Assembly (NCBI GenBank): GCA_023261685.1
Contig: JAHFOM010000001.1
Span: 1-42,510, forward strand
DNA length: 42,510 nt
Direction of reading: 5' to 3'
From: Candidatus Moraniibacteriota bacterium
GTDB lineage: Bacteria > Patescibacteriota > Minisyncoccia > Moranbacterales > UBA1568
In this document: piece by piece, positions 6,637-40,377 of the stretch
Numbering within the stretch: the first letter of the stretch is position 1
Layout: each line of letters opens with the position of its first letter
Notes under the pieces: model-generated
The model's input: only the letters and a program-made list of their open reading frames with translations
Databases searched by the model: none
Told to the model about the DNA's origin: nothing
Translations under genes and position numbers: made by a program

Positions 6637-7287
6637 TTACTGTGTAATCGCCAGATAGTATTTTTGGTACTCTGTCACCGCCTCAGGAGTCAGCTCCACT
6701 GCCGACCCATTGACGTCCAATGAGATGAGCGTGGCAACATCCTTCCCGCCCTTGTTGCGTTCAAGAATGTGGCGGGAGGATCCAAAAGGGTGTGAACCCC
6801 ATGCAATCCGCTTGCCTTTGTCATCGACAATGACAAAGGTCAGAGCCGTGACCTTTCCGAAGCTCTCTTTGGTAAAAGTGAGCTGATTAGTGACCGTCTC
6901 CGCCATAGGGGCACAAGACGTTTTGGAGAGGTCATAACGTTGACTTCCGATACCGGCCCAATCATTGCCGGCGCCGGTTATGCAAAACTGCAATCCGGCG
7001 AACCGAGCCGAATCATCAGCATAACTGACAACTTCGACTGTGCCTTTCCCGGACTCGTCCGGATATTTTTTAGCCTTTTGACTACCAGATGGCTCGTTCA
7101 GCCAAACGCCGGCATTTTTGCTGAGCGTTATATTTAACACCCCGGGCGAAACGGTTTCCACGGTCATCGTGGTTTCTCCGCCGGAACCCACAATGGGTGC
7201 GCGTGACCCGAATTGGTGGGTGGTAGCGTCGGCCAACGCCGGTTGAGACAAGAGCAAGGCGCCAAGAACAAAAACGTACTGTTTCAT
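6637..7287 (-). CDS. Secreted hypothetical protein (signal peptide)
   Basis: The ORF track gives 6637..7350. I prefer the start at 7287, where MKQYVFVLGALLLSQPALA is a classic signal peptide preceded by AAAGGAGAGAAAAG. No recognisable domain. Confidence 0.7.
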   Translation of the reverse strand: MKQYVFVLGALLLSQPALADATTHQFGSRAPIVGSGGETTMTVETVSPGVLNITLSKNAGVWLNEPSGSQKAKKYPDESGKGTVEVVSYADDSARFAGLQFCITGAGNDWAGIGSQRYDLSKTSCAPMAETVTNQLTFTKESFGKVTALTFVIVDDKGKRIAWGSHPFGSSRHILERNKGGKDVATLISLDVNGSAVELTPEAVTEYQKYYLAITQ

Positions 7288-7404: not shown

Positions 7405-7433
7405 ATTATACACCCTCCTACTCTTTTTGTCAA
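7405..7433 (-). promoter_or_regulatory. Perfect-consensus sigma70 promoter TTGACA-N17-TATAAT driving 6637..7287
   Basis: On the minus strand, TTGACA is the complement of 7428-7433 and TATAAT the complement of 7405-7410. The spacer is 17 nt. The -35 lies exactly 9 bp beyond the end of the repeat element at 7443. Confidence 0.75.
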
Positions 7434-7442
7434 GGGCAAGGG

Positions 7443-7674
7443 CTTACATTCTATCCTAAAGTGCAATGGTTCAACCGCCAAAAGAATTTTTTGGCTCTCG
7501 TTTCACACTGTGTGAAGAAGGTCTCTCGGCTCGAAAAAAGAAGCTTCTCCGCCATTGATTGGGGGCGACTTTTTTCTCGTTCAGCCGAGAGGTCCTGATG
7601 AGTGGTGGAATGGAGACAAAAAATTACTTTTGGTGGTTGAACTGAAATGAGCAAGTATTGCACTTCAGAATAGA
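7443..7674. repeat. Rod-like quasi-palindromic element, copy 1 (unclassified structured repeat)
   Basis: 232 bp, non-coding, and homologous to 15708-15943 (core roughly 85-90 percent identical by eye). It has long complementary arms and nested inner stems, with compensatory differences between the copies. Details are in the findings. Confidence 0.85.
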
Positions 7675-7714
7675 GCTCGGGGGGAGCTACCATAAACTAA
7701 AGGAATCCCTCCCC

Positions 7715-14609: not shown

Positions 14610-14960
14610 ATGACGTATGAAATTGATGAAGATCTTCTTAGAGAAGTTCTCTACGAAAAAGAATGGGCGGAAGCTATCATCATCAGCGATGATTCGGCTC
14701 TTAAGCGGATAATAAGTATTGTCGGTCAATGGTGGGAGGAAAACAAAAATAATAAAAAATTAGGGAAGTATGCTTTCCCTCGTAAACTCAACTCCACCGT
14801 ACGTGGCGTGCTCTACCACGCTCCAAGGAAGGCTAAAAACCGGTACAAGGATCTCACAAACGCCTATTTTCAGGCAGAGCTGGCAAACAAAAGGGTTCTG
14901 GAAAAAGCCGCCAGAAAGGTGGAAGAAGAAAAGAGACAACCCTCATTTAACTTTGGATGA
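14610..14960 (+). CDS. Hypothetical protein (116 aa, charged, no recognisable domain)
   Basis: The ORF has a GAGGGG RBS 7 nt upstream, its own promoter and its own terminator. Confidence 0.55.
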   Translation: MTYEIDEDLLREVLYEKEWAEAIIISDDSALKRIISIVGQWWEENKNNKKLGKYAFPRKLNSTVRGVLYHAPRKAKNRYKDLTNAYFQAELANKRVLEKAARKVEEEKRQPSFNFG

Positions 14961-14996
14961 TACTATCCACCATCCAAACAGAGATCAAAAATAGAA

Positions 14997-15027
14997 CGCG
15001 CGAGGAAACTTTCTCGCGCTTTTTTCT
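14997..15027 (+). terminator. Rho-independent terminator
   Basis: Stem GCGCGAG (14998-15004) pairs with CTCGCGC (15013-15019) and is followed by TTTTTTC. Confidence 0.85.
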
Positions 15028-15052
15028 TTCCTCTTGTTTTCTCAATCAACTA

Positions 15053-15084
15053 TCACTATTTATGCAATTGTGCAAAAAGTGATA
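15053..15084. repeat. Imperfect 32-bp palindrome centred on GCAATTG
   Basis: The sequence is ATCACTATTTATGCAATTGTGCAAAAAGTGAT. The outer pair ATCACT/AGTGAT and the central GCAATTG are complementary. It shares the TGCAATTG core with the perfect palindrome 24 bp downstream. Confidence 0.6.
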
Positions 15085-15107
15085 TGTTGTAAATCACTCC
15101 TCTATTT

Positions 15108-15149
15108 CAAATATTACTTTTCTTGCAATTGCAAGAAAAGTAATATTTG
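15108..15149. repeat. Perfect 42-bp palindrome
   Basis: The sequence is CAAATATTACTTTTCTTGCAA|TTGCAAGAAAAGTAATATTTG. I checked it base by base: 21+21 with no mismatch and no spacer. Confidence 0.95.
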
Positions 15150-15171
15150 GTCAAAAAGAATAAACTTTGAG

Positions 15172-15218
15172 AAAAGAAAAAGGCCAGAAGCGATATTTCG
15201 CGACTGGCTCTTTTTTTC
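15172..15218. terminator. Bidirectional hairpin terminator (serves 15238..15594 on the minus strand)
   Basis: The sequence AAAAAGGCCAGAAGCGATATTTCGCGACTGGCTCTTTTTTT forms stems GCCAG/CTGGC and GCGA/TCGC, with an A-tract before and a T-tract after. Confidence 0.7.
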
Positions 15219-15237
15219 TTCGTTAGACACGAAATTT

Positions 15238-15594
15238 TTACTCCGTACTTTTTTTGACTTCAGCTTCTACTGCTTCACAGACAACGGGAGTTTTTACGAC
15301 GAATGTTCCCGGTTGCGCCTCGCCATCCACATAGCGGACCTTGAGGTCAACTGTGACTGAGCAGTCCCTGATGCCTTTCAGCGGGATCTGCGACAGATCT
15401 GCTTTTTCAGTAATACTCTTACGAAAGATTGCCTGCGCTCCATATTCTAGAGTAGGAGGTATTAGATACAAGAGCATGCCATATACCATAAGTAGTACCG
15501 GAAACAGAGTGATAGCTTTCTCAAAAAGAGCCCACAAAAAACCACATGTGAAAAGAATAAGCCCCATTAGCAGTAACCATTCAAATACATCCAT
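15238..15594 (-). CDS. Small membrane protein (two predicted TM helices plus a soluble C-terminal part), hypothetical
   Basis: The ORF track gives 15238..15666. I prefer the start at 15594 (MDVFEWLLLMGLILFTCGFLWALF), because GGAGG lies 8 nt upstream and a promoter at 15670-15698 lies inside the longer ORF. Confidence 0.6.
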   Translation of the reverse strand: MDVFEWLLLMGLILFTCGFLWALFEKAITLFPVLLMVYGMLLYLIPPTLEYGAQAIFRKSITEKADLSQIPLKGIRDCSVTVDLKVRYVDGEAQPGTFVVKTPVVCEAVEAEVKKSTE

Positions 15595-15669
15595 CTTTCC
15601 ATCCTCCGTAAAAGCGTGCCAAGATATGATACCTCGGCTCAAGTTGAAGTTGTTAAGGCACTTCAAATG

Positions 15670-15698
15670 ATACTAGCACAAAACAGCCATCCCGTCAA
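15670..15698 (-). promoter_or_regulatory. sigma70-type promoter TTGACG-N17-TAGTAT for 15238..15594
   Basis: The complement of 15693-15698 is TTGACG and the complement of 15670-15675 is TAGTAT, with a 17-nt spacer. The -35 lies exactly 9 bp beyond the left end (15708) of repeat copy 2. Confidence 0.7.
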
Positions 15699-15707
15699 TA
15701 CCCGAAG

Positions 15708-15943
15708 CTTACATTCCATTCTGAAGCACACCCATACTCACCTCAGTTCAGCCACCAAAAGAATTTTTTGGCTATCGTTTCACACTGTGTGAAGAAGGCC
15801 TCTCGGTTCGGAAAAATAAGCTTTTCCGCCATTGATTGGGGGCTGATGTTTCCGGTTAACCGAGAGGTCCTGATGAGTGGTGAAATGGAGACAAAAAATT
15901 ACTTTTGATGGTTGAACCATTGCACTTCAGGATAGGATGTAAG
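15708..15943. repeat. Rod-like quasi-palindromic element, copy 2
   Basis: 236 bp, homologous to 7443-7674, with both termini CTTACAT / ATGTAAG intact. The ~17-nt arm insertion lies on the opposite arm compared with copy 1. Confidence 0.85.
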
Positions 15944-15952
15944 GAGGAAACA

Positions 15953-15981
15953 TTGACTCTTGAAGAAAAATTCATTAGAAT
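15953..15981 (+). promoter_or_regulatory. sigma70-type promoter TTGACT-N17-TAGAAT for tRNA-Lys
   Basis: TTGACT lies at 15953-15958 and TAGAAT at 15976-15981, with a 17-nt spacer. The -35 lies exactly 9 bp beyond the right end (15943) of repeat copy 2. Confidence 0.75.
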
Positions 15982-16019
15982 ACGCACTGTTATCCGTTCT
16001 CTCGGATAATGCAAGATAT

Positions 16020-16092
16020 GGGTCGTTAGCTCAGTTGGTAGAGCAGTGGCCTTTTAAGCCAACGGTCGCAGGTTCGAATCCTGCACGACCCA
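16020..16092 (+). tRNA. tRNA-Lys (anticodon UUU)
   Basis: I folded the cloverleaf by hand. The acceptor stem is GGGTCGT/ACGACCC, the D arm GCTC..GAGC, the anticodon loop CTTTTAA and the T arm GCAGG TTCGAAT CCTGC. The discriminator is A and no CCA is encoded. Confidence 0.95.
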
Positions 16093-16106
16093 CACAAAAC
16101 TGAAAG

Positions 16107-20064: not shown

Positions 20065-20092
20065 ATCATAGCAGAAACATATCCGCTGTCAA
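20065..20092 (-). promoter_or_regulatory. sigma70-type promoter TTGACA-N16-TATGAT upstream of greA
   Basis: The complement of 20087-20092 is TTGACA and the complement of 20065-20070 is TATGAT. Confidence 0.6.
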
Positions 20093-20116
20093 GCACCGCT
20101 TGTCTCAGAAAATCTT

Positions 20117-22027
20117 TCATTCGTCACTCCCCAAAATTTCCGGGCGGGAAAAATACCACTCGTAAACATCTTTAGTGACCGGTACGGCATTATACCCCTC
20201 TTCTCCCTGACCCTCTACCAAGACGATCATCGCGAGACTGGGATCTTCATACGGGGCGAATGATACGAACCAGCCATGAGTCTTCTTGTCGTTGCCGAAT
20301 TGGGCGGTGCCCGTCTTGCCAGCTACCGCTACCGGCAGCGCCCGCAAGGCCTGCGCCGTCCCCTGAGAGTCCATAATGGTTGCCCGCATACCTTCGCGCG
20401 CGATTTCTAGAATGTCCGGCCGGATGAAATCTTTCCGGATGACCATCTGATCGACCACTGTCGTCTTACCATCCGCGGAGCGTATCTCTCTGACTATCCT
20501 CGGCACATACAGCGTCCCACCATTGGCGATCGCCGCGATGGAATTCAATATCTGGAGCGGTGTCGCCAAGACGAATCCCTGCCCGATCGCCGCGTGATAG
20601 TCATCGCCGATATACCAGCGCTCCCCGATCACATCCTGTTTCCACGCTGGATCAGGGATCAATCCATCCGTTTCTCCCGGCACATCGATACCGGTTTTAT
20701 TGCCATACCCGAACAGATTTTCATATTTTTTCATCCGCTCCATACCGAGACCGGGGACGCTGCCGTATCCTCCGCCGATAGAATAAAAGAACACGTCGCT
20801 CGATACCGCGATAGCGCGCCTGACGTCAGTAAAACCGTGCGTTTTCCAGTCACCAAAAAAGAAATTGCCCACACTGATCCCGCCACGGCTTTCGATTTGC
20901 GTGCTCTCGTTGATGACGCCCTCAGTAAGCGCGGCAACAGCCAGTACCGGCTTGATCGTCGATCCCGGCGGGTATTCTCCTGCCACGGCGCGATTGAAGA
21001 GCGGGAGCGCCGGATCATTAATCAACCCTTGATACGCTTCTGATGAAATGCCTTCGGCGAACAAGTTGTTATCGAAACTCGGCAGACTCACCAGCGCTCG
21101 CACAGCGCCGCTTCGGGGGTCGAGAGCGATTGCCACCGCGCGCTTCAAGTCTTTTTTTTCAAGTAATTCCTGCAGACTGTCGAATATTTTCTTCTGCAGA
21201 TCGGCATCTATATTCAGGATGAGATCGCTCCCGGGCGTCGGCTGGATACTGCCAAGCTCTTTCTTCACTTGACCGAGAGCATCCACTTCCGCCTGCTGGT
21301 ACCCACGCTTGCCGCGGAGAAATGCTTCGTAGCTTTTTTCTATCCCCTGTTTTCCGATGGCATCCGTCAAGAGATACTCCGGATGAAGCTCCAATTCTTC
21401 TTTGCGAATCTTACCCTCATATCCGAGCAAATGAGAAAAAATAAGGCTGTCCGTATAATGACGCTTGGTCGTCTTGTACAGACTGATGCCCGGCAGATCC
21501 CGGCTCCGACTCAAGAAAAGCAGCGCTTCTTCCTGACTGACGCGTTCTTTGATAATGAGCGGTTGGAGCGATGTGCGATCAAACTTCCGAAAGAGTTCGT
21601 CAAGTACGCCCGGATCCAAAACAAAGGTCGAGGAAAGCAAACGCATCATTTCTTCCTGACGAAGCTGATCTTCCGGAATATCCGCCGGAGTAAAAATAAC
21701 ATCCATACTGGGCGTATTGTATACCAATTGTTTGCCGAAACGGTCATAGATGATACCTCGTGGTGCCGGGATGACCAGGGAACGCAGACTGTTCTCTTCT
21801 GCCGTTTGCTGATATTTGGCGCCCAAAATGACATTGAGGTACGCTATACGGACAGCCAGCACGGAAAGAGCGATAACCGCCATTCCCCAAAAAGACCGGA
21901 TGACGGCGCGTCTGAGGGGCCACTCGATCTTGGCGGCATCGCTCTCGGTCACCGTCAAAACCGCGTCGTCGATTTCCATTCCGCGCTTCTCCATCGTATA
22001 TTCGTTTTTTCGGCCAAAGAAGAACAT
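20117..22027 (-). CDS. mrdA: Penicillin-binding protein 2 (elongasome peptidoglycan D,D-transpeptidase)
   Basis: 636 aa with an N-terminal TM. Transpeptidase motifs GSTIKP (SxxK), SSD (SxN-like) and KTGTA (KTG). It lies directly downstream of mreBCD. Confidence 0.9.
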   Translation of the reverse strand: MFFFGRKNEYTMEKRGMEIDDAVLTVTESDAAKIEWPLRRAVIRSFWGMAVIALSVLAVRIAYLNVILGAKYQQTAEENSLRSLVIPAPRGIIYDRFGKQLVYNTPSMDVIFTPADIPEDQLRQEEMMRLLSSTFVLDPGVLDELFRKFDRTSLQPLIIKERVSQEEALLFLSRSRDLPGISLYKTTKRHYTDSLIFSHLLGYEGKIRKEELELHPEYLLTDAIGKQGIEKSYEAFLRGKRGYQQAEVDALGQVKKELGSIQPTPGSDLILNIDADLQKKIFDSLQELLEKKDLKRAVAIALDPRSGAVRALVSLPSFDNNLFAEGISSEAYQGLINDPALPLFNRAVAGEYPPGSTIKPVLAVAALTEGVINESTQIESRGGISVGNFFFGDWKTHGFTDVRRAIAVSSDVFFYSIGGGYGSVPGLGMERMKKYENLFGYGNKTGIDVPGETDGLIPDPAWKQDVIGERWYIGDDYHAAIGQGFVLATPLQILNSIAAIANGGTLYVPRIVREIRSADGKTTVVDQMVIRKDFIRPDILEIAREGMRATIMDSQGTAQALRALPVAVAGKTGTAQFGNDKKTHGWFVSFAPYEDPSLAMIVLVEGQGEEGYNAVPVTKDVYEWYFSRPEILGSDE

Positions 22028-31184: not shown

Positions 31185-31205
31185 GAAACAGAAGCCTCAC
31201 TTCCC

Positions 31206-31322
31206 TATCCCCGAAAAAGAAGACTGATCGGAGGTACCGGCTTGGATTTTCAGATTGACGAGGAGGAGCTCGATGATGAAGCAAGAGCCTTTGCCCTGAC
31301 CGTCGGACTTTATTTAACAGCC
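31206..31322 (-). pseudogene. Detached histidine-kinase 3' tail, copy A (in-frame C-terminal fragment only)
   Basis: In the kinase frame it translates as IKSDGQGKGSCFIIELLLVNLKIQAGTSDQSSFSGIGK*. It is bounded upstream by a TAA stop. It is homologous to the real 3' end of the kinase gene at 33340-33462. The tracked ORF 31147..31329 reads a different frame of the same DNA. Confidence 0.65.
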
Positions 31323-32039: not shown

Positions 32040-32165
32040 CTACTTCCCCAACCCCGCGAAAGAAGCCTGATCGGAGGTGCCGACTGCTATTTTCGGATTG
32101 ACGAGGGGGAGCTCGATGATGAAGCGGGCGCCTTTGCATGGACCAGCACCTTCTCCGTGGCATCC
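32040..32165 (-). pseudogene. Detached histidine-kinase 3' tail, copy B (in-frame C-terminal fragment only)
   Basis: It translates as ...GCHGEGAGPCKGARFIIELPLVNPKIAVGTSDQASFAGLGK* and is homologous to 33340-33462. It starts about 25 nt after the stop of the M20 gene. Confidence 0.65.
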
Positions 32166-33339: not shown

Positions 33340-33462
33340 CTACTTCTTCCCCACCCCAGAGAAAGAAGCCTGATCAGAGGTGCCAGCCTTGATTTTCGGA
33401 TTGATGAGGGGGAGCTCGATAATGAATCTTGCGCCTTTGCCCGGACCGTCTGATTCCACGTG
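33340..33462 (-). repeat. Histidine-kinase 3' tail, copy C (the one still attached to the gene)
   Basis: It encodes IHVESDGPGKGARFIIELPLINPKIKAGTSDQASFSGVGKK*. By eye it is roughly 75-80 percent identical in nucleotides to copies A and B. Confidence 0.8.
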
Positions 33463-35049
33463 GATATGACCGCCGTGCGCTTCGACGAAGTTCTTGCCGA
33501 CGAAGAGTCCGAGTCCCGTACCGGAGACCACCATCTTGGTCGTTTCATTGCTCCGGCTGAATTTCTCAAACAATTTATTCTTGTCTTCGGGGTGAATGCC
33601 GATACCAGTGTCTGAGACGATGATGCGCGCTACCCGGTCATCCCCCTCCACTGATACTGTGACTCCCCCCTCCTTGGTATACTTCAGAGCATTGTCGATC
33701 AGATTGGACACGACTTCTTTGATCTTGCCCGCATCCAGCGTGAGCTTGGGCAGTCCGACTTTCGGCAGATGGATCTTGAGCGAGAGCTTCTTGTTCTTCG
33801 CCGCCAGAGCGAACATATCCACGAGCTCCGCCACCAGTGGCTCCAGCTGTGTCGGTGCAAAAGCATACTGGATGCGTCCCGCTTCAATGCGCGAGATATT
33901 GAGGAGATCTTCTACCAATTGCACGAGCCGGCTGTTGATGGTATAGAGTTTGTCGAGTACGTCTTGGATCGCCACGGGGACTTTGCCATAGGAGCCTTCG
34001 AGGATGAGCGAGACATAGCCCTTGATAGCGGTCAGCGGCGTGCGCAACTGGTGCGAAGCGATGGAGATGAATTCCGATTTTGCCATATCGAGCTCGCGCA
34101 AGCGGTCATTGGCGACTGCCAGACTGTTCGAAAGTTTCTGGAGTTCTTCCTTGCGCTCTACTTCCGCTTTAACCGACCGGATGAGAATCCAACCAGCCAC
34201 CAGCGTAATGATGAGCGTAATACTGACCAAGATATAGTTCATCATACTAGTCACCACTGTCAGCATCGCGGCAATGAGGAGAAACTGCGTCACCACCAGC
34301 GCCTGCGCCCCGATGAGCTTGATATCAAAGGCTTTGAATTTGACGATGAGGTAGGCGAGGAAACCAATAAATACTGGCATTCCAAAAAGTCCATATTGTT
34401 CCCATTCAAAATTATCAAACAGACTCGCCCAATAACTACTTATAGAAAAGGAGAGGAGGAAGAAACCAATTCCTATTGTAAACAACAAAATTTTTCGCTT
34501 TTCTTCACGCTTAATCGCTTTTCTGTAGCGAAAGAATGAAACTCCTAAAATCCAAAATAATAATAAAAAGCCCACGATATAGTAGTAATCCGTGTAGAGT
34601 TTTGCTTCTGTTGATTCACAATTTGGAACATCAAATCCACTTAAATGAAAGTTGGTCATCGATAAAATAATCACTGGGAGCAATAGCATCCCAAAAATCA
34701 ACTTTTTATTAAGAGAAATATCACATCCATTTAGAAAAGAATAAAAGAGATAGACGGCTGATACATATATCAACATATAAATAACCCCCAAATATGCCCA
34801 TGTAAACATTATTTTGCTCCCATCCGTAGTCGTCCAAATAATCAAATCAAAATACGACCATAGTGAAAAAAATATAGAGAGCATCAAAAGTAAGCGGGCT
34901 GAGATATTTTTTCTATTTTTGACAAAAACAAACAAAGCTAACAATAAGGATACTGCCGCTGTCGGTATGTGAGAATAATACAATAACAATGGGTTTGATT
35001 GAATAAACTGATAGCAACTTTCGATATTGGTGACTAAGTTGAAATTCAT
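33340..35049 (-). CDS. Sensor histidine kinase with an N-terminal ~7-TM sensor domain
   Basis: 569 aa. H-box SIASHQLRTPLTAIKGY, N-box NLIDNALKYT, G1 DTGIGI and G2 GTGLGL. The N-terminal ~270 aa are polytopic membrane. Confidence 0.9.
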   Translation of the reverse strand: MNFNLVTNIESCYQFIQSNPLLLYYSHIPTAAVSLLLALFVFVKNRKNISARLLLMLSIFFSLWSYFDLIIWTTTDGSKIMFTWAYLGVIYMLIYVSAVYLFYSFLNGCDISLNKKLIFGMLLLPVIILSMTNFHLSGFDVPNCESTEAKLYTDYYYIVGFLLLFWILGVSFFRYRKAIKREEKRKILLFTIGIGFFLLSFSISSYWASLFDNFEWEQYGLFGMPVFIGFLAYLIVKFKAFDIKLIGAQALVVTQFLLIAAMLTVVTSMMNYILVSITLIITLVAGWILIRSVKAEVERKEELQKLSNSLAVANDRLRELDMAKSEFISIASHQLRTPLTAIKGYVSLILEGSYGKVPVAIQDVLDKLYTINSRLVQLVEDLLNISRIEAGRIQYAFAPTQLEPLVAELVDMFALAAKNKKLSLKIHLPKVGLPKLTLDAGKIKEVVSNLIDNALKYTKEGGVTVSVEGDDRVARIIVSDTGIGIHPEDKNKLFEKFSRSNETTKMVVSGTGLGLFVGKNFVEAHGGHIHVESDGPGKGARFIIELPLINPKIKAGTSDQASFSGVGKK

Positions 35050-35096
35050 ACTTGTTGATTCAAAAAATTTTGTATTTATATAAAATAATTTTTCTA

Positions 35097-35972
35097 CTAT
35101 ATTTTATCTAGTAAAGCATAAATTTTTAGCCGCTTAAAATCTATGCTGGACTCTTTGAAATTTAAGTTTTTAAATAAAGAAGATTTATAATGATAAACTA
35201 CTAAATCATTCTCACTTTTTTTTGGAACCAACGAAACTACAAGTGGCTTTACCCCAAATAATCCATATACTTTCTTAAAAGCAGGGGTGATAACTTCCTG
35301 CACAAAGCTTCCCTCATTCTTATCAGACAAATAATTTTCAAATAAAATACCATAGCAAATCAATAAAGCAAAATAATACTCATAGTATCTCTTGGCAACA
35401 CCACCATGCTTACTATACCATTCTGACATATCAAATACTGCCCCATCTAAATTCACACCGTTTCCTCGTAGCAATTCATGATGAAAATCAACAAGATTCA
35501 TCTCCGATAAAGTTAGAACATCACAAATTTTCTTACTTTCTGCCTGATTAAAATCAACTATCTTCTCAACAAATAACTTATCTCCAGCGTGCTTCCCTAC
35601 TCCATCTCGAAATACCAGTTTCCCTAAATAGTATTTACTAAGATTTCGAAAAGTAAACTTGTCCTGCAAGTATTCTAGAAAAACGTATTTCAGTCCTGAC
35701 GCCTCTGCCATATCCAAAAACCATGAAGTTTCATTGTTTGGAGAAGCAACATGTCTTGCGAGTATCGCTCGTGGCTCAGATAGGAAAACCTCCGGTATAT
35801 CCCCTCCCAAAAAATCCTCCACCTTCTTCCGCAACTCCTTGTCATTCCACCGCCTCCAAATCTCTTCCTTGGCTACCGAGAGCGGGGTATAGATGCCCAG
35901 ATCCACCGCTGTCTGCACCGTTTCTGTTGTCTTCGCTATCTCTGTTTCCTGCGTTTGCTTCTTGTCAGTCAT
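35097..35972 (-). CDS. Hypothetical protein (291 aa, no recognisable domain)
   Basis: A long ORF in the AT-rich block with its own candidate promoter. Its codon composition matches the neighbouring AT-rich genes. Confidence 0.6.
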   Translation of the reverse strand: MTDKKQTQETEIAKTTETVQTAVDLGIYTPLSVAKEEIWRRWNDKELRKKVEDFLGGDIPEVFLSEPRAILARHVASPNNETSWFLDMAEASGLKYVFLEYLQDKFTFRNLSKYYLGKLVFRDGVGKHAGDKLFVEKIVDFNQAESKKICDVLTLSEMNLVDFHHELLRGNGVNLDGAVFDMSEWYSKHGGVAKRYYEYYFALLICYGILFENYLSDKNEGSFVQEVITPAFKKVYGLFGVKPLVVSLVPKKSENDLVVYHYKSSLFKNLNFKESSIDFKRLKIYALLDKI

Positions 35973-36081
35973 ACCCTTTCGGAATTACTCATTAACTCCC
36001 ATACTCATCAGCATACTCAGCCACCGTGCCACAAAAAACAAAACAACATACCTAAAAACAAGCATCCTTATCACTGCTTTG

Positions 36082-36109
36082 ATTATACAATAAACCCCTC
36101 TTTTTGCAA
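36082..36109 (-). promoter_or_regulatory. Candidate promoter TTGCAA-N16-TATAAT for 35097..35972
   Basis: The complement of 36082-36087 is TATAAT, immediately preceded by TG. The -35-like TTGCAA lies at 36104-36109, inside a small hairpin (CCCCT/AGGGG). Confidence 0.45.
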
Positions 36110-36200
36110 GGGGGGAAAGGCAGGAGCAAACCTATTCAGAGAGGCACTCAAGCCCTGACACTCCCATACAACCCGCCCTCCTTGATATATTTCAAAACAT

Positions 36201-36965
36201 CTACAATAATTCCTTCTCTATCACCTCAAATAACGGCCTCATATATTCATCCAGTTTGATACCATGTTGATCAAAAAATTGAGCAAAGTCCGTCCTCTTC
36301 TTATCAAGCATGACAATCTCGCCAAATTCCGGCTGCTCGTCATTTTTCTGTAATTGCAAAACAAAATCTTCGTACCTCTGCATAAACTGCAGACTCATTT
36401 CATTAAGAATGACTCTGTACACGACCGTCATTTTGTCCGTCGGTCCGCCTTCTTTGAAATACGCCAGATCAAACGACTTGATTCTTGATTGATCCCCGAT
36501 GTCGATCCCGAGCTCTTCTGCCAGTTCTTTTTTGATATTATGCTCAAAGTCAAAAACATCACCCCGCAAATCATCACTATCGATCCCACCTCCACAGAGC
36601 TGGTAGATGCCAGCACGAGACGTCTGCTCCCCCATTTTTCCAAACACTATTTTCCCATCTTCTGTCTCCACGAGTGCCGCCGTATGGATAATGTGCACGC
36701 CGTATTCATCAAGCGTATCCACATTCTGACAGTAGAGATAGTGGGCATAATCCGTTTTTTCTACCACTATTTCCATACGATCTTCGAACGTTTCTTTTTT
36801 TGTGACCGTAAAAACATCGCCGCGTTTGTAAGATTTGCCACTTTGAAGCAGCGTGTCCCAATAGGCATCAATCTTTCCCTGTATATCCGGAGGAAGCATC
36901 ACCTCCTGATTACTGAAACGCACGATGAGTTTTTTTGTCAGTGGGGAAACTACAAAGTCTTTCAT
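36201..36965 (-). CDS. Nudix-like hydrolase domain protein (functional call tentative)
   Basis: 254 aa. The segment GGGIDSDDLRGDVFDFEHNIKKELAEELGI resembles a Nudix box (Gx5Ex7REUxEExGU) but with irregular spacing and K in place of R. It has a 4-nt overlap with the upstream kinase gene. Confidence 0.45.
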   Translation of the reverse strand: MKDFVVSPLTKKLIVRFSNQEVMLPPDIQGKIDAYWDTLLQSGKSYKRGDVFTVTKKETFEDRMEIVVEKTDYAHYLYCQNVDTLDEYGVHIIHTAALVETEDGKIVFGKMGEQTSRAGIYQLCGGGIDSDDLRGDVFDFEHNIKKELAEELGIDIGDQSRIKSFDLAYFKEGGPTDKMTVVYRVILNEMSLQFMQRYEDFVLQLQKNDEQPEFGEIVMLDKKRTDFAQFFDQHGIKLDEYMRPLFEVIEKELL

Positions 36966-37948
36966 AAGGTCTGATTGAGCTTGTTAAAAAAATTCCACGT
37001 TTCTAACGCACGAGCTTCATTGTGCGCCTCCTGACTTGCATATTTCTTATTATCCCAAGAAAAATAAGATTGCTCTACGGAATCAATAATAAAGCGCAGA
37101 CATAATTCGAGTGTAACATACTTTATACAAGATACGACTTGAACATATGAAACTTTTCCTGTTTTACTGTTCGCAGAATTATACCCAGTAAGGAATCTCT
37201 CGGTTGCTTTCTTAAAGTCAGACCTGCTGGATAATGACAAAAGTGACCGGAGACAATCTCCAATATCAATGTAGATAGATCCGATCATAAAAGTATCATA
37301 GTCTATGAAAACAAGGGGGGCATGCTGTTTCGTAAATAGAATATTTTCTATTCGTGGGTCACCATGAATAATCTGCTGTTTTTCAGAAAGGATGTCAAAA
37401 TACTTTTCAAGATTATTTACTGTATCACCAAGTATGTTTTGTAGCTGAGGAGTATACCTACTTTTGTTTATGGATATAGCTTTCTGAATATAGAAATTTT
37501 TTTGATGAAAGCCATTGAGAATATGTTTTGGCTTGTAATGAAGATCTGCAAGGTCTTTATGTAGCAGACCCAACAGCAAACCCACATTTCTGTGAAGACT
37601 CTTAGAAATGTGTTTTTGTGAAAAACTAATGCCATTGACATATTCATATACTCTCCATAAACTGTCGTCTCTCTCATAAAACATTGTACACTGCCGTGAT
37701 CGCAATAATCGTGGGCAATCCCACTTTCTTTTCAGTAAATGTTGCGTTATAACATCAATATCATACATTAATTTCTTTTTGAGCATTTGATGTAATTTCT
37801 GTATTACAAACTCCTTACCATAGATGTTTTTTACGTAAAATGTTTTATTGATAAGCCCACCCTTAAGAACCTCTGCCTTAGAAATACGACCAATATCATA
37901 ACTTTGTATGACTCTTTTAATCTCATCATTAAAGATTGATGTAATCAT
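36962..37948 (-). CDS. Aminoglycoside-phosphotransferase/choline-kinase-fold small-molecule kinase
   Basis: 328 aa with the catalytic loop IIHGDPRIENILF (HxDxxxxN) and the metal-binding FIDYDT. Confidence 0.8.
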   Translation of the reverse strand: MITSIFNDEIKRVIQSYDIGRISKAEVLKGGLINKTFYVKNIYGKEFVIQKLHQMLKKKLMYDIDVITQHLLKRKWDCPRLLRSRQCTMFYERDDSLWRVYEYVNGISFSQKHISKSLHRNVGLLLGLLHKDLADLHYKPKHILNGFHQKNFYIQKAISINKSRYTPQLQNILGDTVNNLEKYFDILSEKQQIIHGDPRIENILFTKQHAPLVFIDYDTFMIGSIYIDIGDCLRSLLSLSSRSDFKKATERFLTGYNSANSKTGKVSYVQVVSCIKYVTLELCLRFIIDSVEQSYFSWDNKKYASQEAHNEARALETWNFFNKLNQTL

Positions 37949-38633
37949 AAGGAAATGCCTTTATGGATATTTCGTCGAATATAACATTTGGCGATGTTTT
38001 TGAAATGTACAAAATAAGCTCTGCAATATCATCCGTCTGCAGTATATTTTCTTCTACAGCATTATCTACAGAGCGCGACATGTCAGTAAGTACGCTTCCT
38101 GGAGAAACGAGCATACATCGGATTCCAGTAGAAAAGTTCTCTTTTTGCAATGATTTTACAAGTCCCATCAATCCTGCCTTGCTGGATGCGTAAGAGCAGT
38201 CCTTCTCTGTTCCGGAAGATCCCCACCTAGATCCAATGAGAATGATGGTACCCTTTATACTTTTATCTCGGAAATATTGTGTTCCAAATTTTGCTACGTG
38301 AAAGGATCCTGTTAGATTTACATCTATCGTGGATTTCCAATCATCACGATCTGTTTTTTCTGAATTTTTAAGTTTCAATATCCCAGCACAATTCACTATA
38401 CACTGAAAATCTTCCCTATTCGACTGTTGAAAAAAGTTAGATACATCAGAAAAATTTGTTACATCAAGAGTCTGATAAAAAAAGCTGTTACTTTTCTGAA
38501 TATCTTCCGGTAAAGAATTGCTAATATCAACACCGTAAACGACAAATCCATTATCAAGAAACTTTCGAGCAATACTCCTACCCATACCCCCACAAACACC
38601 TACAATAAGTATTCCATTTTTAGAAGGCATCAT
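37929..38633 (-). CDS. Short-chain dehydrogenase/reductase (SDR)
   Basis: 234 aa. The cofactor loop is VGVCGGMGRSIA and the catalytic YxxxK is YASSKAG. It overlaps both neighbouring genes, by 20 nt and 14 nt. Confidence 0.85.
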   Translation of the reverse strand: MMPSKNGILIVGVCGGMGRSIARKFLDNGFVVYGVDISNSLPEDIQKSNSFFYQTLDVTNFSDVSNFFQQSNREDFQCIVNCAGILKLKNSEKTDRDDWKSTIDVNLTGSFHVAKFGTQYFRDKSIKGTIILIGSRWGSSGTEKDCSYASSKAGLMGLVKSLQKENFSTGIRCMLVSPGSVLTDMSRSVDNAVEENILQTDDIAELILYISKTSPNVIFDEISIKAFPYDYINL

Positions 38634-39612
38634 AAAATTTTTGAAAGGGGGGATTATCTATTGGGGAATAGTTAGAACTTGTGAGGTACTCTTTATCCCT
38701 CTTGCTTAGGTTACCAATCTTGTTTTTATTATAGACAAAGAAATGCCCATTTCTCGATACATAATTTATTTCGACGTTATTAAATAATGACTCGTGTATA
38801 GCCTCATTCATATCATTTTCTCCATATAAAATAGGTATGCGAGATTTTTGCTTAGCAAGAAACCCTGTAATGATATCAATTACTTTGGCGGAGGGAGTCT
38901 CTATACTACAGATATCACCATGTCCCCCATTCTCTATTGCAAACATAGTGAGATCAATAACATTTTGAGCAGTTAACATATAACGTGTCATACGTTTATC
39001 GCGTATCGTCACTGGCTTGTTTTCAACTATCTTTTTTTCAATAACATCTGTAAGCGATCCATTTGAATGAAGAATATTACCAAACCTGATAGCGATAAAC
39101 TTAATATGTGGGATATTTGCATTCTCTCCTAAAATTTCTAGAAATCGTTTTGAGGCTCCCATTGTGGATGAGGATTGTGCTGCTTTATCAGAAGAACATA
39201 AAATAACTCTCTCTATAAAATTACAGTTTCGCACAACCTTCATGATATTTGAAAAAGCAACAATATTTTCAAAAGCCATCTTTTCTGGATAGCAATACCC
39301 GGTAGACACATGTTTTAATGAGGCACAATGGATAACAATATTGACCTCGTATTTACAGAGAATTTCTTCTATAAATCTTGCATCAAGAACATCCCCAAAT
39401 TCAATATGAAACCGCTCTTTACTTTCAGACTCCCTTTTAATCTCCATAAGTTTTGCTAGAGCATCTTCCGATCGATCAATAGCACATATTTCATTTCCCT
39501 GAGATAAAAGAAATTTAGATAGGCTTAACCCTACTGTTCCGCCAGCTCCAGTGATAAGAATTTTTTTCATATGCTTTACATATGCTTTATAAGAGTATAA
39601 AAAATTGAGCAT
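38620..39612 (-). CDS. Polysacc_synt_2 family NDP-sugar 4,6-dehydratase/epimerase (CapD/PseB/WbpM-like)
   Basis: 330 aa, with an alternative start MKKILITGAGG at 39570. Motifs: ILITGAGGTVG, CASLKHV..YPEKMAFENI, SSDKAAQSSSTMGASK (the MxxxK variant typical of this family) and RFGNILHSNGS. Confidence 0.8.
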   Translation of the reverse strand: MLNFLYSYKAYVKHMKKILITGAGGTVGLSLSKFLLSQGNEICAIDRSEDALAKLMEIKRESESKERFHIEFGDVLDARFIEEILCKYEVNIVIHCASLKHVSTGYCYPEKMAFENIVAFSNIMKVVRNCNFIERVILCSSDKAAQSSSTMGASKRFLEILGENANIPHIKFIAIRFGNILHSNGSLTDVIEKKIVENKPVTIRDKRMTRYMLTAQNVIDLTMFAIENGGHGDICSIETPSAKVIDIITGFLAKQKSRIPILYGENDMNEAIHESLFNNVEINYVSRNGHFFVYNKNKIGNLSKRDKEYLTSSNYSPIDNPPFQKFYDAF

Positions 39613-39636
39613 CCTGGCGGTGCAGAATGCTCATAG

Positions 39637-40377
39637 TCAACCAGATGTTGGGATTCCAAAATACTTTATTATAAGATTGGAATTTTTCGAAAGAAAATCA
39701 AGATCTTCTAACGTCCCAAAATCAAAAAAGAACTTATTATTCATAATACTCCATACATCGGGGATGAGCCTTTCCATTGATTCTCGTTCAACATAAACAT
39801 CGTGGCTAGTATCAATGTTATCCAAGAACCTCTTTGTGTCCAAAACATAGAACCCCATCGTGCTCGAGGGAACACCTGAACACGTATTGTTTTTATCATA
39901 AAGTGACAGAATACTTCTTGTTTTTCTGTCTACTTTGACAAGACCGTAATTTGGAACATTCTTCTTGGTAGTAGTAAGCACAAGGCACGCCGCTTTTCTC
40001 TCAATGTGTTCCTTGCAAATTTTTCGCAAGTCAACACTCCATATATTATCACCAGTCAAAAGCAACGTATGATTATGTCTCACTTCAGACACCCCGGTAA
40101 AAGAACTAAAGGCAGTGCTTTTGGGATAGTCTTCCTCTACAAACCGTACTGACGAAGGAAAATTATTGTGAATTTCTTCCTCAATGAGCCATCCATTACA
40201 GGCGTTACTTCCTGTAACAATCACTTCGCTGATACCGTTTCGCAATAACCAAAAGACTAGATATCGCAAAAACGGAACCCCTCCAAAAGGGAGCATGCAC
40301 TTCGGTTTTTGCTCACAAATTTTACCAAGGCGACTTGCTCTTCCAGATGCTATGATAACTGCAGAAAAATGCACCAT
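39637..40377 (-). CDS. Sugar-phosphate nucleotidyltransferase (NTP_transferase family)
   Basis: 246 aa with the N-terminal signature AVIIASGRASRLG...KPKCMLPFGG. An AGGAGG RBS lies 4 nt upstream. It is the first gene of the AT-rich operon. Confidence 0.8.
   Translation of the reverse strand: MVHFSAVIIASGRASRLGKICEQKPKCMLPFGGVPFLRYLVFWLLRNGISEVIVTGSNACNGWLIEEEIHNNFPSSVRFVEEDYPKSTAFSSFTGVSEVRHNHTLLLTGDNIWSVDLRKICKEHIERKAACLVLTTTKKNVPNYGLVKVDRKTRSILSLYDKNNTCSGVPSSTMGFYVLDTKRFLDNIDTSHDVYVERESMERLIPDVWSIMNNKFFFDFGTLEDLDFLSKNSNLIIKYFGIPTSG

Follow-up and report, generated by a model that had tools for sequence, protein, structure and literature searches.

The window analysed here is a stretch of 42,510 nt whose genes include serS, lysS, frr, mrdA, mreB, mreC and greA. 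The closest named homologues of its SerS protein all belong to Candidatus Moranbacteria/Moraniibacteriota (Patescibacteria / CPR). Between a gene for a 118-aa protein and a tRNA-Lys gene, the window carries a foldback element, hereafter copy 2, which is one member of a repeat family. The features of this locus are the following:

15238..15594, minus strand: gene for a 118-aa protein with a hydrophobic N-terminal half, preceded by a GGAGG ribosome-binding site, without family match
15670..15698, minus strand: promoter TTGACG-N17-TAGTAT with a TG extension, aimed at the 118-aa gene (promoter scan)
15699..15707, minus strand: 9-nt linker from the left terminus of the element to the -35 hexamer (promoter scan)
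15708..15943, no strand: element copy 2, a full foldback repeat of 236 bp (sequence, repeat comparison and folding)
15708..15744, plus strand: outer arm of the bulged type, made of the terminal repeat CTTACATTCCATTCTGAAG and a one-sided loop of ~14 nt (..CCATACTCACCTC)
15745..15918, plus strand: 174-bp core in the '+' orientation, with the alpha apex variant; the most conserved part of the family
15919..15943, plus strand: outer arm without bulge, ATTGCACTTCAGGATAGGATGTAAG, the arm type that usually adjoins the promoter
15944..15952, plus strand: 9-nt linker from the right terminus to the -35 hexamer, of a sequence that varies between copies
15953..15981, plus strand: tRNA-Lys promoter TTGACT-N17-TAGAAT (promoter scan), kept in element-free relatives
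16020..16093, plus strand: tRNA-Lys (UUU) (tRNA/RNA annotation)

The original prediction had given copy 2 a length of 236 bp with both ends intact, and had seen in it nearly the whole spacer of a divergent promoter pair. Both points hold: the termini, read again here, are CTTACATTCC on the left (15708-15717) and GGATGTAAG on the right (15935-15943), and copy 2 takes up the whole interval from one -35 hexamer to the other, leaving free only 9 nt at either end (15699-15707 and 15944-15952). The two outward promoters that had been proposed (TTGACG-N17-TAGTAT at 15670-15698 on the minus strand, TTGACT-N17-TAGAAT at 15953-15981 on the plus strand) are the very sites returned by our scan. Their hexamers make them candidate promoters of the sigma-70 type, with -35 and -10 motifs 17 bp apart (16-18 bp being usual for this type) and a gene or tRNA downstream in the correct orientation. 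Both fire away from the element, and the scan of copy 2 found no promoter-like site inside the element and none pointing into it. The layout promoter, arm, core, arm, promoter is therefore real.

On the left of copy 2, the 118-aa protein matched no family in Pfam or NCBIfam. Its gene is convergent with a gene for a 116-aa protein (14610-14960), also without family match, and both are missing from relatives with 82-84% SerS identity; window 14610-15594 is a lineage-specific insertion of ~1.3 kb that adjoins copy 2. Downstream of the 118-aa gene lies a perfect 40-bp palindrome, AAATATTACTTTTCTTGCAATTGCAAGAAAAGTAATATTT (window 15109-15148). Since a 95%-identical copy of it is also present at an unrelated MAG locus (L002, ~1304-1341), this palindrome represents a second small repeat family.

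Over its 236 bp, copy 2 folds as a single long imperfect hairpin with a rod-like shape. Predicted RNA folds reach -97.5 kcal/mol on the plus strand (z -6.7) and -89.6 kcal/mol on the minus strand (z -5.7), and the single-strand DNA fold reaches -48.9 kcal/mol (z -7.3). The fold is not continuous: it contains a one-sided bulge of 14 nt, an internal loop of 9 nt, and several other internal loops or mismatches. Cruciform extrusion, which had been proposed on the grounds that negative supercoiling between divergent promoters would favour it, is probably disfavoured for the element as a whole, since the 14-nt bulge and the internal loops and mismatches of the predicted fold would penalise it.

No family of Rfam 15 matches the element at gathering scores. 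When E-values up to 10 were admitted over 15600-16100, two non-tRNA matches appeared, both far under their gathering cut-offs and neither of them a ribozyme family: Plastid-ycf2 (RF04354; 23.9 bits, E 0.013), antisense to the tRNA gene, and mir-1010 (RF03283; 14.3 bits, E 5.8), at 15868-15932 inside the element. A hammerhead, a K-turn or a box C/D motif had been considered in view of CUGAUGAG and GAAA in the core; these candidates were dropped, with no ribozyme match at E up to 10 and no helix II.

Copy 2 had been presented as the second copy of a rod-like element, and indeed another copy, confirmed together with the long-hairpin fold, lies closer to the start of the window:

7405..7433, minus strand: copy 1 promoter TTGACA-N17-TATAAT (12/12 consensus positions), driving gene 6637-7287 (promoter scan)
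7443..7681, no strand: element copy 1 (repeat comparison)
7443-7467: non-bulged arm of copy 1
7468-7643: core of copy 1, inverted relative to the arms when compared with copy 2, with the beta apex variant
7644-7681: bulged arm of copy 1

The copy 1 promoter begins 9 nt outside the left terminus of the element, and copy 1 sits behind a strong terminator. In total about 12 copies (at least 12), 230-257 bp long, were recovered at unrelated loci of the window and of the MAGs CAYGEA01 and CAZIBB01. This set was found via an 18-mer of the core and represents one species-level Moranbacteria lineage: across 185,579 species-representative genomes, the exact 18-mer occurred, chance hits aside, only in CAYGEA01 and CAZIBB01. 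The family was not found in E. coli genomes, phages, plasmids or IMG/VR (viral contigs). In JGI metagenomes, an exact 23-mer gave no match, and a gapped motif gave a single one, inside a coding gene, by chance. Many of the MAG copies are located at contig ends. No ORF common to the copies was found, and a homolog search with a protein from L001 returned only fragments.

The two MAGs (L001-L022) are labelled 'uncultured Bdellovibrionales' in public databases, whereas SerS and synteny place them in Candidatus Moranbacteria. Because the ENA assemblies with a 95%-identical SerS belong to the strain of CAYGEA01, the public taxon label of CAYGEA01 and CAZIBB01 appears to be incorrect.

Comparison of the copies shows that the element is built of two parts, a core and a pair of outer arms. 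One arm measures 25 nt; the other, of ~37 nt, bears the one-sided loop of ~14 nt. Together they carry terminal inverted repeats (CTTACATTCCATTCTGAAG ... CTTCAGGATAGGATGTAAG). Between copies, outer arms are 62-67% identical, with a difference between promoter-proximal arms (78%) and distal arms (62%). The 174-bp core has a mean identity of 87%, and of up to 99%, the value found among the cores of L001, L011 and L022. The termini are thus less conserved than the core. Complementarity between the two arms of a copy was no higher than complementarity to the arms of other copies, which indicates that the arms decay independently. Selection for pairing of the outer arms, which we had considered, is unsupported on the same count.

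The apex of the core exists as two variants, alpha and beta, with compensatory double changes at five base pairs, and the asymmetric internal loops of the core, including a CUGAUGA motif, are invariant. The '+' strand of the core is the more stable one in 8/8 copies, by 7-14 kcal/mol in seven of them and by 1.3 in L025. It also has more G-U pairs in every copy (5-11, vs 0-4 on the '-' strand). As this strand asymmetry is inherited among young copies, the copies do not constitute independent evidence. Relative to the arms and the promoter, the core lies in one orientation in five copies and in the other in 3-4. L002 and L004, for instance, have proximal arms identical at 24/25 positions and ~56 nt of promoter homology, and their cores are in opposite orientations; L016 and L014 also differ in core orientation despite the relatedness of their arms. 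This independence of core orientation from arm relatedness points to repeated inversion or replacement of the core. In L002 (198-225), a 20-nt insertion with a small hairpin of its own is centred in the local perfect palindrome of the core, TTCACAC-T-GTGTGAA, which suggests that the local core hairpin may be a real structural unit.

We then turn to the position of the element relative to promoters. In a strict scan, a -35 hexamer started exactly 9 nt outside the terminus at 7 of the 17 evaluable termini, namely copy 2 left, copy 2 right, copy 1 left, L001, L002, L004 and L016. Two further termini fit this register near the threshold (L014, with TTGCGT-17-TATGAT, and L022, cut by the contig end), and for L011, whose terminus is degenerate, the register is 5-9 nt according to the terminal base chosen. 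All register promoters point outward from the element and have genes or a tRNA downstream in the right orientation. Promoter-like sites occur at a density of 0.09% per position over all sequence and of 0.2% outside long open-reading-frame stretches. With these densities, the binomial probability of finding at least 7 of 17 termini at one offset is 1e-17 and 4e-15, respectively. Given the 17-bp spacer, the terminal base of the element falls at about position -45 from the transcription start.

Homology between copies ends abruptly at the terminus. Pairwise identity was 79% over the last 10 nt of the arm, and dropped to 23% in the 9-nt linker, a random level (25% expected from composition). It was 72% in the -35 hexamer, 31% in the 17-nt spacer (31% expected), 74% in the -10 hexamer and 27% in the 17 nt downstream of it (28% expected). 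Since linker, spacer and downstream region are at random level, the promoters are unrelated sequences that have only their hexamers and their position in common, the exception being L002 and L004 with their ~56 nt of shared promoter homology. Of the flanking sequence, only the -35 hexamer is conserved as a motif, separated from the terminus by 9 nt of variable linker.

A promoter adjoins the non-bulged arm in 8/9 cases and the bulged arm in 2/8 (Fisher p = 0.015). Most copies have a single promoter, and their opposite end usually abuts the preceding gene, at its 3' end or terminator; the stop codon of that gene in L001 is 14 nt from the element. Promoters at both ends were found at copy 2 only, among the copies recovered. 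The divergent pair of copy 2, which the original prediction had taken as the context of the element, is present, but it does not define the family, and it is a special case of the broader 9-nt register rule. As to the DNA-level role (insulator or switch) that had been held as plausible as an RNA product, what stands is a relation to promoters at the DNA level that is not accidental, with exactly 9 nt at 7-9 independent termini.

Orthologous tRNA-Lys loci had been designated as a place where the element might be present or absent in relatives. Our comparison rests on relatives with 95%, 84% and 82% SerS identity, the contigs of the 89-90% relatives ending within or beside the tRNA-Lys promoter. 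In the 95% relative (L025), the element is at the same place, 88% identical, between nearly identical flanks. In the 84% (L030) and 82% (L035) relatives, the tRNA-Lys locus is without element and its promoter TTGACT-N17-TAGAAT is kept, with both hexamers identical and 13/17 (L030) or 12/17 (L035) identical positions in the spacer. There, the tRNA-Lys promoter stands back to back with the promoter of a neighbouring BNR-repeat gene. Being conserved in the element-free L030 and L035, the tRNA-Lys promoter predates the element; copy 2 therefore came to lie beside a promoter that already existed.

The family is also polymorphic within the species. At the copy-1 locus, the window strain has the full element and the MAG strain has only the 26-nt proximal arm, AATGGCACTTCAGAATGGAATGTAAG, in four independent assemblies (L037:6578-6603, and also L038, L040 and L042; window equivalent 7443-7467). 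This solo arm is exactly 9 nt from the same TTGACA-N17-TATAAT promoter, within flanks that are 98-100% identical to the window, and it differs from the window arm at 5/26 positions. In a fifth assembly, the linker is preceded by a different sequence again. The apex at the copy-2 locus is alpha in the window and beta in the other strain; core orientation is the same in the window and L025, the only orthologous pair comparable. At orthologous loci, then, the element changes faster than its flanks. The same element junctions were present in independent assemblies from several samples. No clean empty site was recovered in a near-identical strain, the sole within-species 'absent' allele retaining one arm, nor was an empty site for copy 1 found in the 84% relative, where the copy-1 locus itself is not conserved. 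Three features go beyond the original prediction: the constant spacing of 9 nt, the division into arms and a core that lies in either orientation, and this polymorphism within the species.

Several other arrangements were noticed in the window and its relatives. At the greA promoter, which is conserved, another inverted-repeat structure of ~125 bp directly abuts the -35 hexamer TTGACA in the 84% and 82% relatives (L030:4613-4737, L035:3441-3575), and in L035 the upstream motif, TTGAC included, is duplicated and inverted. In the window (20070-20117), only 23 nt separate the mrdA stop from the greA -35 hexamer. Promoter-docked hairpin elements may thus be common in this clade. Between serS and tRNA-Lys, partial duplicates of the tRNA-Lys 3' end are found at L029:8938-8970, L030:8547-8580 and L035:7385-7420 and 7495-7520, and the duplicate in L029 adjoins an additional 266-aa gene. 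Integrative elements that used tRNA-Lys as attachment site may have left these duplicates as scars.

Further along the window, a 121-nt repeat is present in three copies that are 74-79% identical (31197-31317, 32040-32160 and 33343-33463). One of them is the 3' end of a histidine-kinase gene (33340-35049). The other two lie beside HepT-like and M20 peptidase genes and resemble orphaned pieces of the same C-terminal coding sequence. Finally, window 34000-40000 has a G+C content of 0.36-0.39, vs ~0.49 elsewhere, and contains kinase-like, NUDIX-like and unannotated genes; it may have been horizontally acquired.

How could these observations on the element be explained? We give about an even chance to the proposal that it is a lineage-restricted, non-coding, non-autonomous foldback repeat, broadly MITE-like, which inserts at ~-45 of promoters. 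Copies sit with their terminal base 9 bp from the -35 hexamer, on its upstream side, at ~-45 relative to the transcription start; as this spot is intergenic and the core promoter is left intact, it would be a safe haven in a gene-dense genome. Copy 2 lies 9 bp from the pre-existing tRNA-Lys promoter, and the same distance separates its other end from the divergent promoter on the left. Once inserted, the outer arms would decay independently, the 174-bp core would be kept homogeneous between copies by conversion or replacement and recurrently inverted between its own inverted repeats, and partial deletion might leave the promoter-proximal arm behind. The register would come from targeted integration, for example if an integrase recognised the -35 hexamer or the border of the bound RNA polymerase; the targeting, and with it the enzyme or polymerase contact, is what we infer. 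Several findings count against this proposal: the termini are less conserved than the core, the opposite of ends read by a transposase, no full copy shows a target-site duplication, the window has no transposase, integrase or recombinase gene, and no clean empty site was recovered from a near-identical strain. Alternatively, if promoter function depends in part on the terminus, selection could have fixed the spacing.

The main rival follows this last line, and makes the element a co-opted cis-regulatory module. The arm, at ~-45 to -70, would act as a binding site or as a substitute for an upstream element, the hairpin would shield the promoter against read-through or supercoiling that comes from the neighbouring gene, and selection would keep the spacing; the insulator of the original prediction falls under this reading. 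This could account for the better conservation of proximal arms (78%, vs 62% for distal ones) and for the persistence of the solo proximal arm, at the correct spacing, in the MAG strain after loss of the rest. An insulating hairpin would also suit the several copies that occupy the gap from the end of a gene to the promoter that follows, as in L001 with its stop 14 nt away, and copy 2, which separates two divergent promoters. However, the arm is not A/T-rich, unlike an UP element, and since the tRNA-Lys promoter is conserved in relatives without the element, it probably works without it. Moreover, selection alone leaves unexplained why the same sequence is found at the same base of ~10 unrelated promoters, and the core, which is the most conserved part, lies at variable distance and in variable orientation from the promoter. 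We consider a regulatory module unlikely; it and targeted insertion are not mutually exclusive.

Two other proposals have less support than this one. The first, which we find improbable, is that of an invertible DNA switch, in which the core would flip between inverted repeats and alter the expression of the adjacent gene, in the style of phase variation. The presence of the core in both orientations (five copies vs 3-4), unlinked to arm relatedness (L002/L004, L016/L014) and so implying repeated inversion, agrees with it, as does the in-situ inversion reported for Correia elements (PMC10969869). On the other hand, the core contains no promoter-like site on either strand, the window contains no invertase gene, and the only comparable orthologous pair, window and L025, shares the same orientation.

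The second, whose probability we place lower still, is that the rod itself is the product, as a structured non-coding RNA gene or a functional single-stranded DNA intermediate, the association with promoters being secondary. The greater stability of the core '+' strand in every copy with its excess of G-U pairs (5-11 vs 0-4), the five compensatory base-pair changes between apex variants and the invariant asymmetric internal loops, CUGAUGA among them, would be expected of such a product. Yet the strand asymmetry exists by descent among young copies, the flanking promoters fire outward with none inside the element or pointing into it, and copy 1 lies behind a strong terminator. In addition, core orientation is not constant relative to neighbouring transcription, and apart from the two sub-threshold hits described above, no Rfam match was obtained even at E up to 10, hammerhead and ribozyme models included.

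Chance or an assembly artefact, which could be suspected from the many MAG copies at contig ends and the mislabelling of the MAGs, has a negligible probability, given the same junctions in independent assemblies from several samples and a chance probability below 1e-14; chance is excluded because the element is a repeat family and the register recurs at unrelated loci.

Coming back to the preferred reading, a MITE-like repeat that would insert upstream of promoters, the family can be compared with known systems. Like prokaryotic MITEs and foldback repeats (Correia/CREE, ERIC, RUP, BOX), it is short (<500 bp), non-coding, intergenic and palindromic, is dispersed in multiple copies, has terminal inverted repeats, forms a stable hairpin and affects the neighbourhood of promoters. 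It differs from MITEs by the absence of any target-site duplication or cognate IS found, by termini that diverge faster than the interior, and by a fixed 9-bp register to the -35 hexamers of unrelated promoters. No direct repeat flanks copy 2, copy 1, L001, L002 or L022, and a target-site duplication of 9 bp, of the kind known from IS4 or IS1, was looked for and is absent. No transposase, integrase or recombinase/invertase gene was found in the 42.5-kb window, and plasmid and phage collections contained nothing similar to the element. A review of prokaryotic MITEs describes only a general intergenic preference, and promoters located inside elements such as Correia (PMC10969869); Correia elements carry their own promoter, whereas the promoters here are outside the element.

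Like REPIN and REP-RAYT systems, the family consists of hairpin-forming intergenic repeats that make up within-genome populations and evolve in concert. REPs are described (PMC3733652, PMC8049555) as units of 20-40 nt with a GTAG or CGTC tag and conserved arms, set as inverted doublets, typically at gene 3' ends. In contrast, the unit studied here measures 236 bp, has termini CTTAC/GTAAG, is least conserved in its arms (62-67%, vs 87-99% in the interior) and is positioned upstream of promoters. Nor does it have the arrangement of IS200/IS605-derived palindrome-associated elements, which insert immediately 3' of a fixed tetra- or pentanucleotide and have subterminal, not terminal, hairpins. Like invertons, it has a segment bounded by inverted repeats that occurs in both orientations beside genes. 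Unlike an inverton, this segment forms a palindrome in its own right and contains no promoter, and the window holds no invertase or other recombinase gene; both orientations were seen only between paralogous copies.

Three further scenarios were rejected. A nested element, with the core inserted into an older small hairpin, was set aside because ~200 kb contained no solo outer hairpin that could have been such a landing site; the only piece that stands alone is the 26-nt arm of the MAG strain, where the window has copy 1. A promoter carried by the element and mobile with it does not fit, as linker, spacer and downstream region show random identity and the tRNA-Lys promoter exists without the element. 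A hybrid promoter, in which the element would supply an outward -35 hexamer, was discarded because this hexamer falls beyond the homology boundary.

For the placement itself, an analogy exists among eukaryotic retroelements. Ty3, Ty1 and the Dictyostelium TRE elements insert just ahead of transcription units, tRNA genes among them, at a constant short spacing, so that promoter complexes offer them safe havens where the genome is compact; a known integrase contacts the Pol III machinery. The analogy concerns the mechanism only. The present case has a bacterial host, sigma-70-type promoters and an element without coding capacity, and its targeting is presumed. It is possible, though we advance it tentatively and hold it rather doubtful, that this family is the first bacterial mobile element to use the promoter as a landmark, by reading the -35 hexamer or the upstream edge or kink of bound RNA polymerase holoenzyme, and to integrate at ~-45, with a separately mobile or convertible core that flips inside the docked hairpin. 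Such landmark reading would be a prokaryotic counterpart of the targeting of Pol III genes by Ty3 and TRE.

In the text of the open-access literature, we found no bacterial repeat reported to keep a base-exact distance to unrelated promoters, intergenic preference being already known. If the register does reflect targeting, it would reveal a new mechanism of target selection, by recognition of the promoter or of RNA polymerase, and would show how selfish DNA can survive in a streamlined genome of ~1 Mb. If it reflects function instead, the element would be a portable promoter-upstream module. Under targeting, the elements would also offer natural markers for the active promoters of uncultured Patescibacteria, a group in which, to our knowledge, promoters have hardly been mapped.
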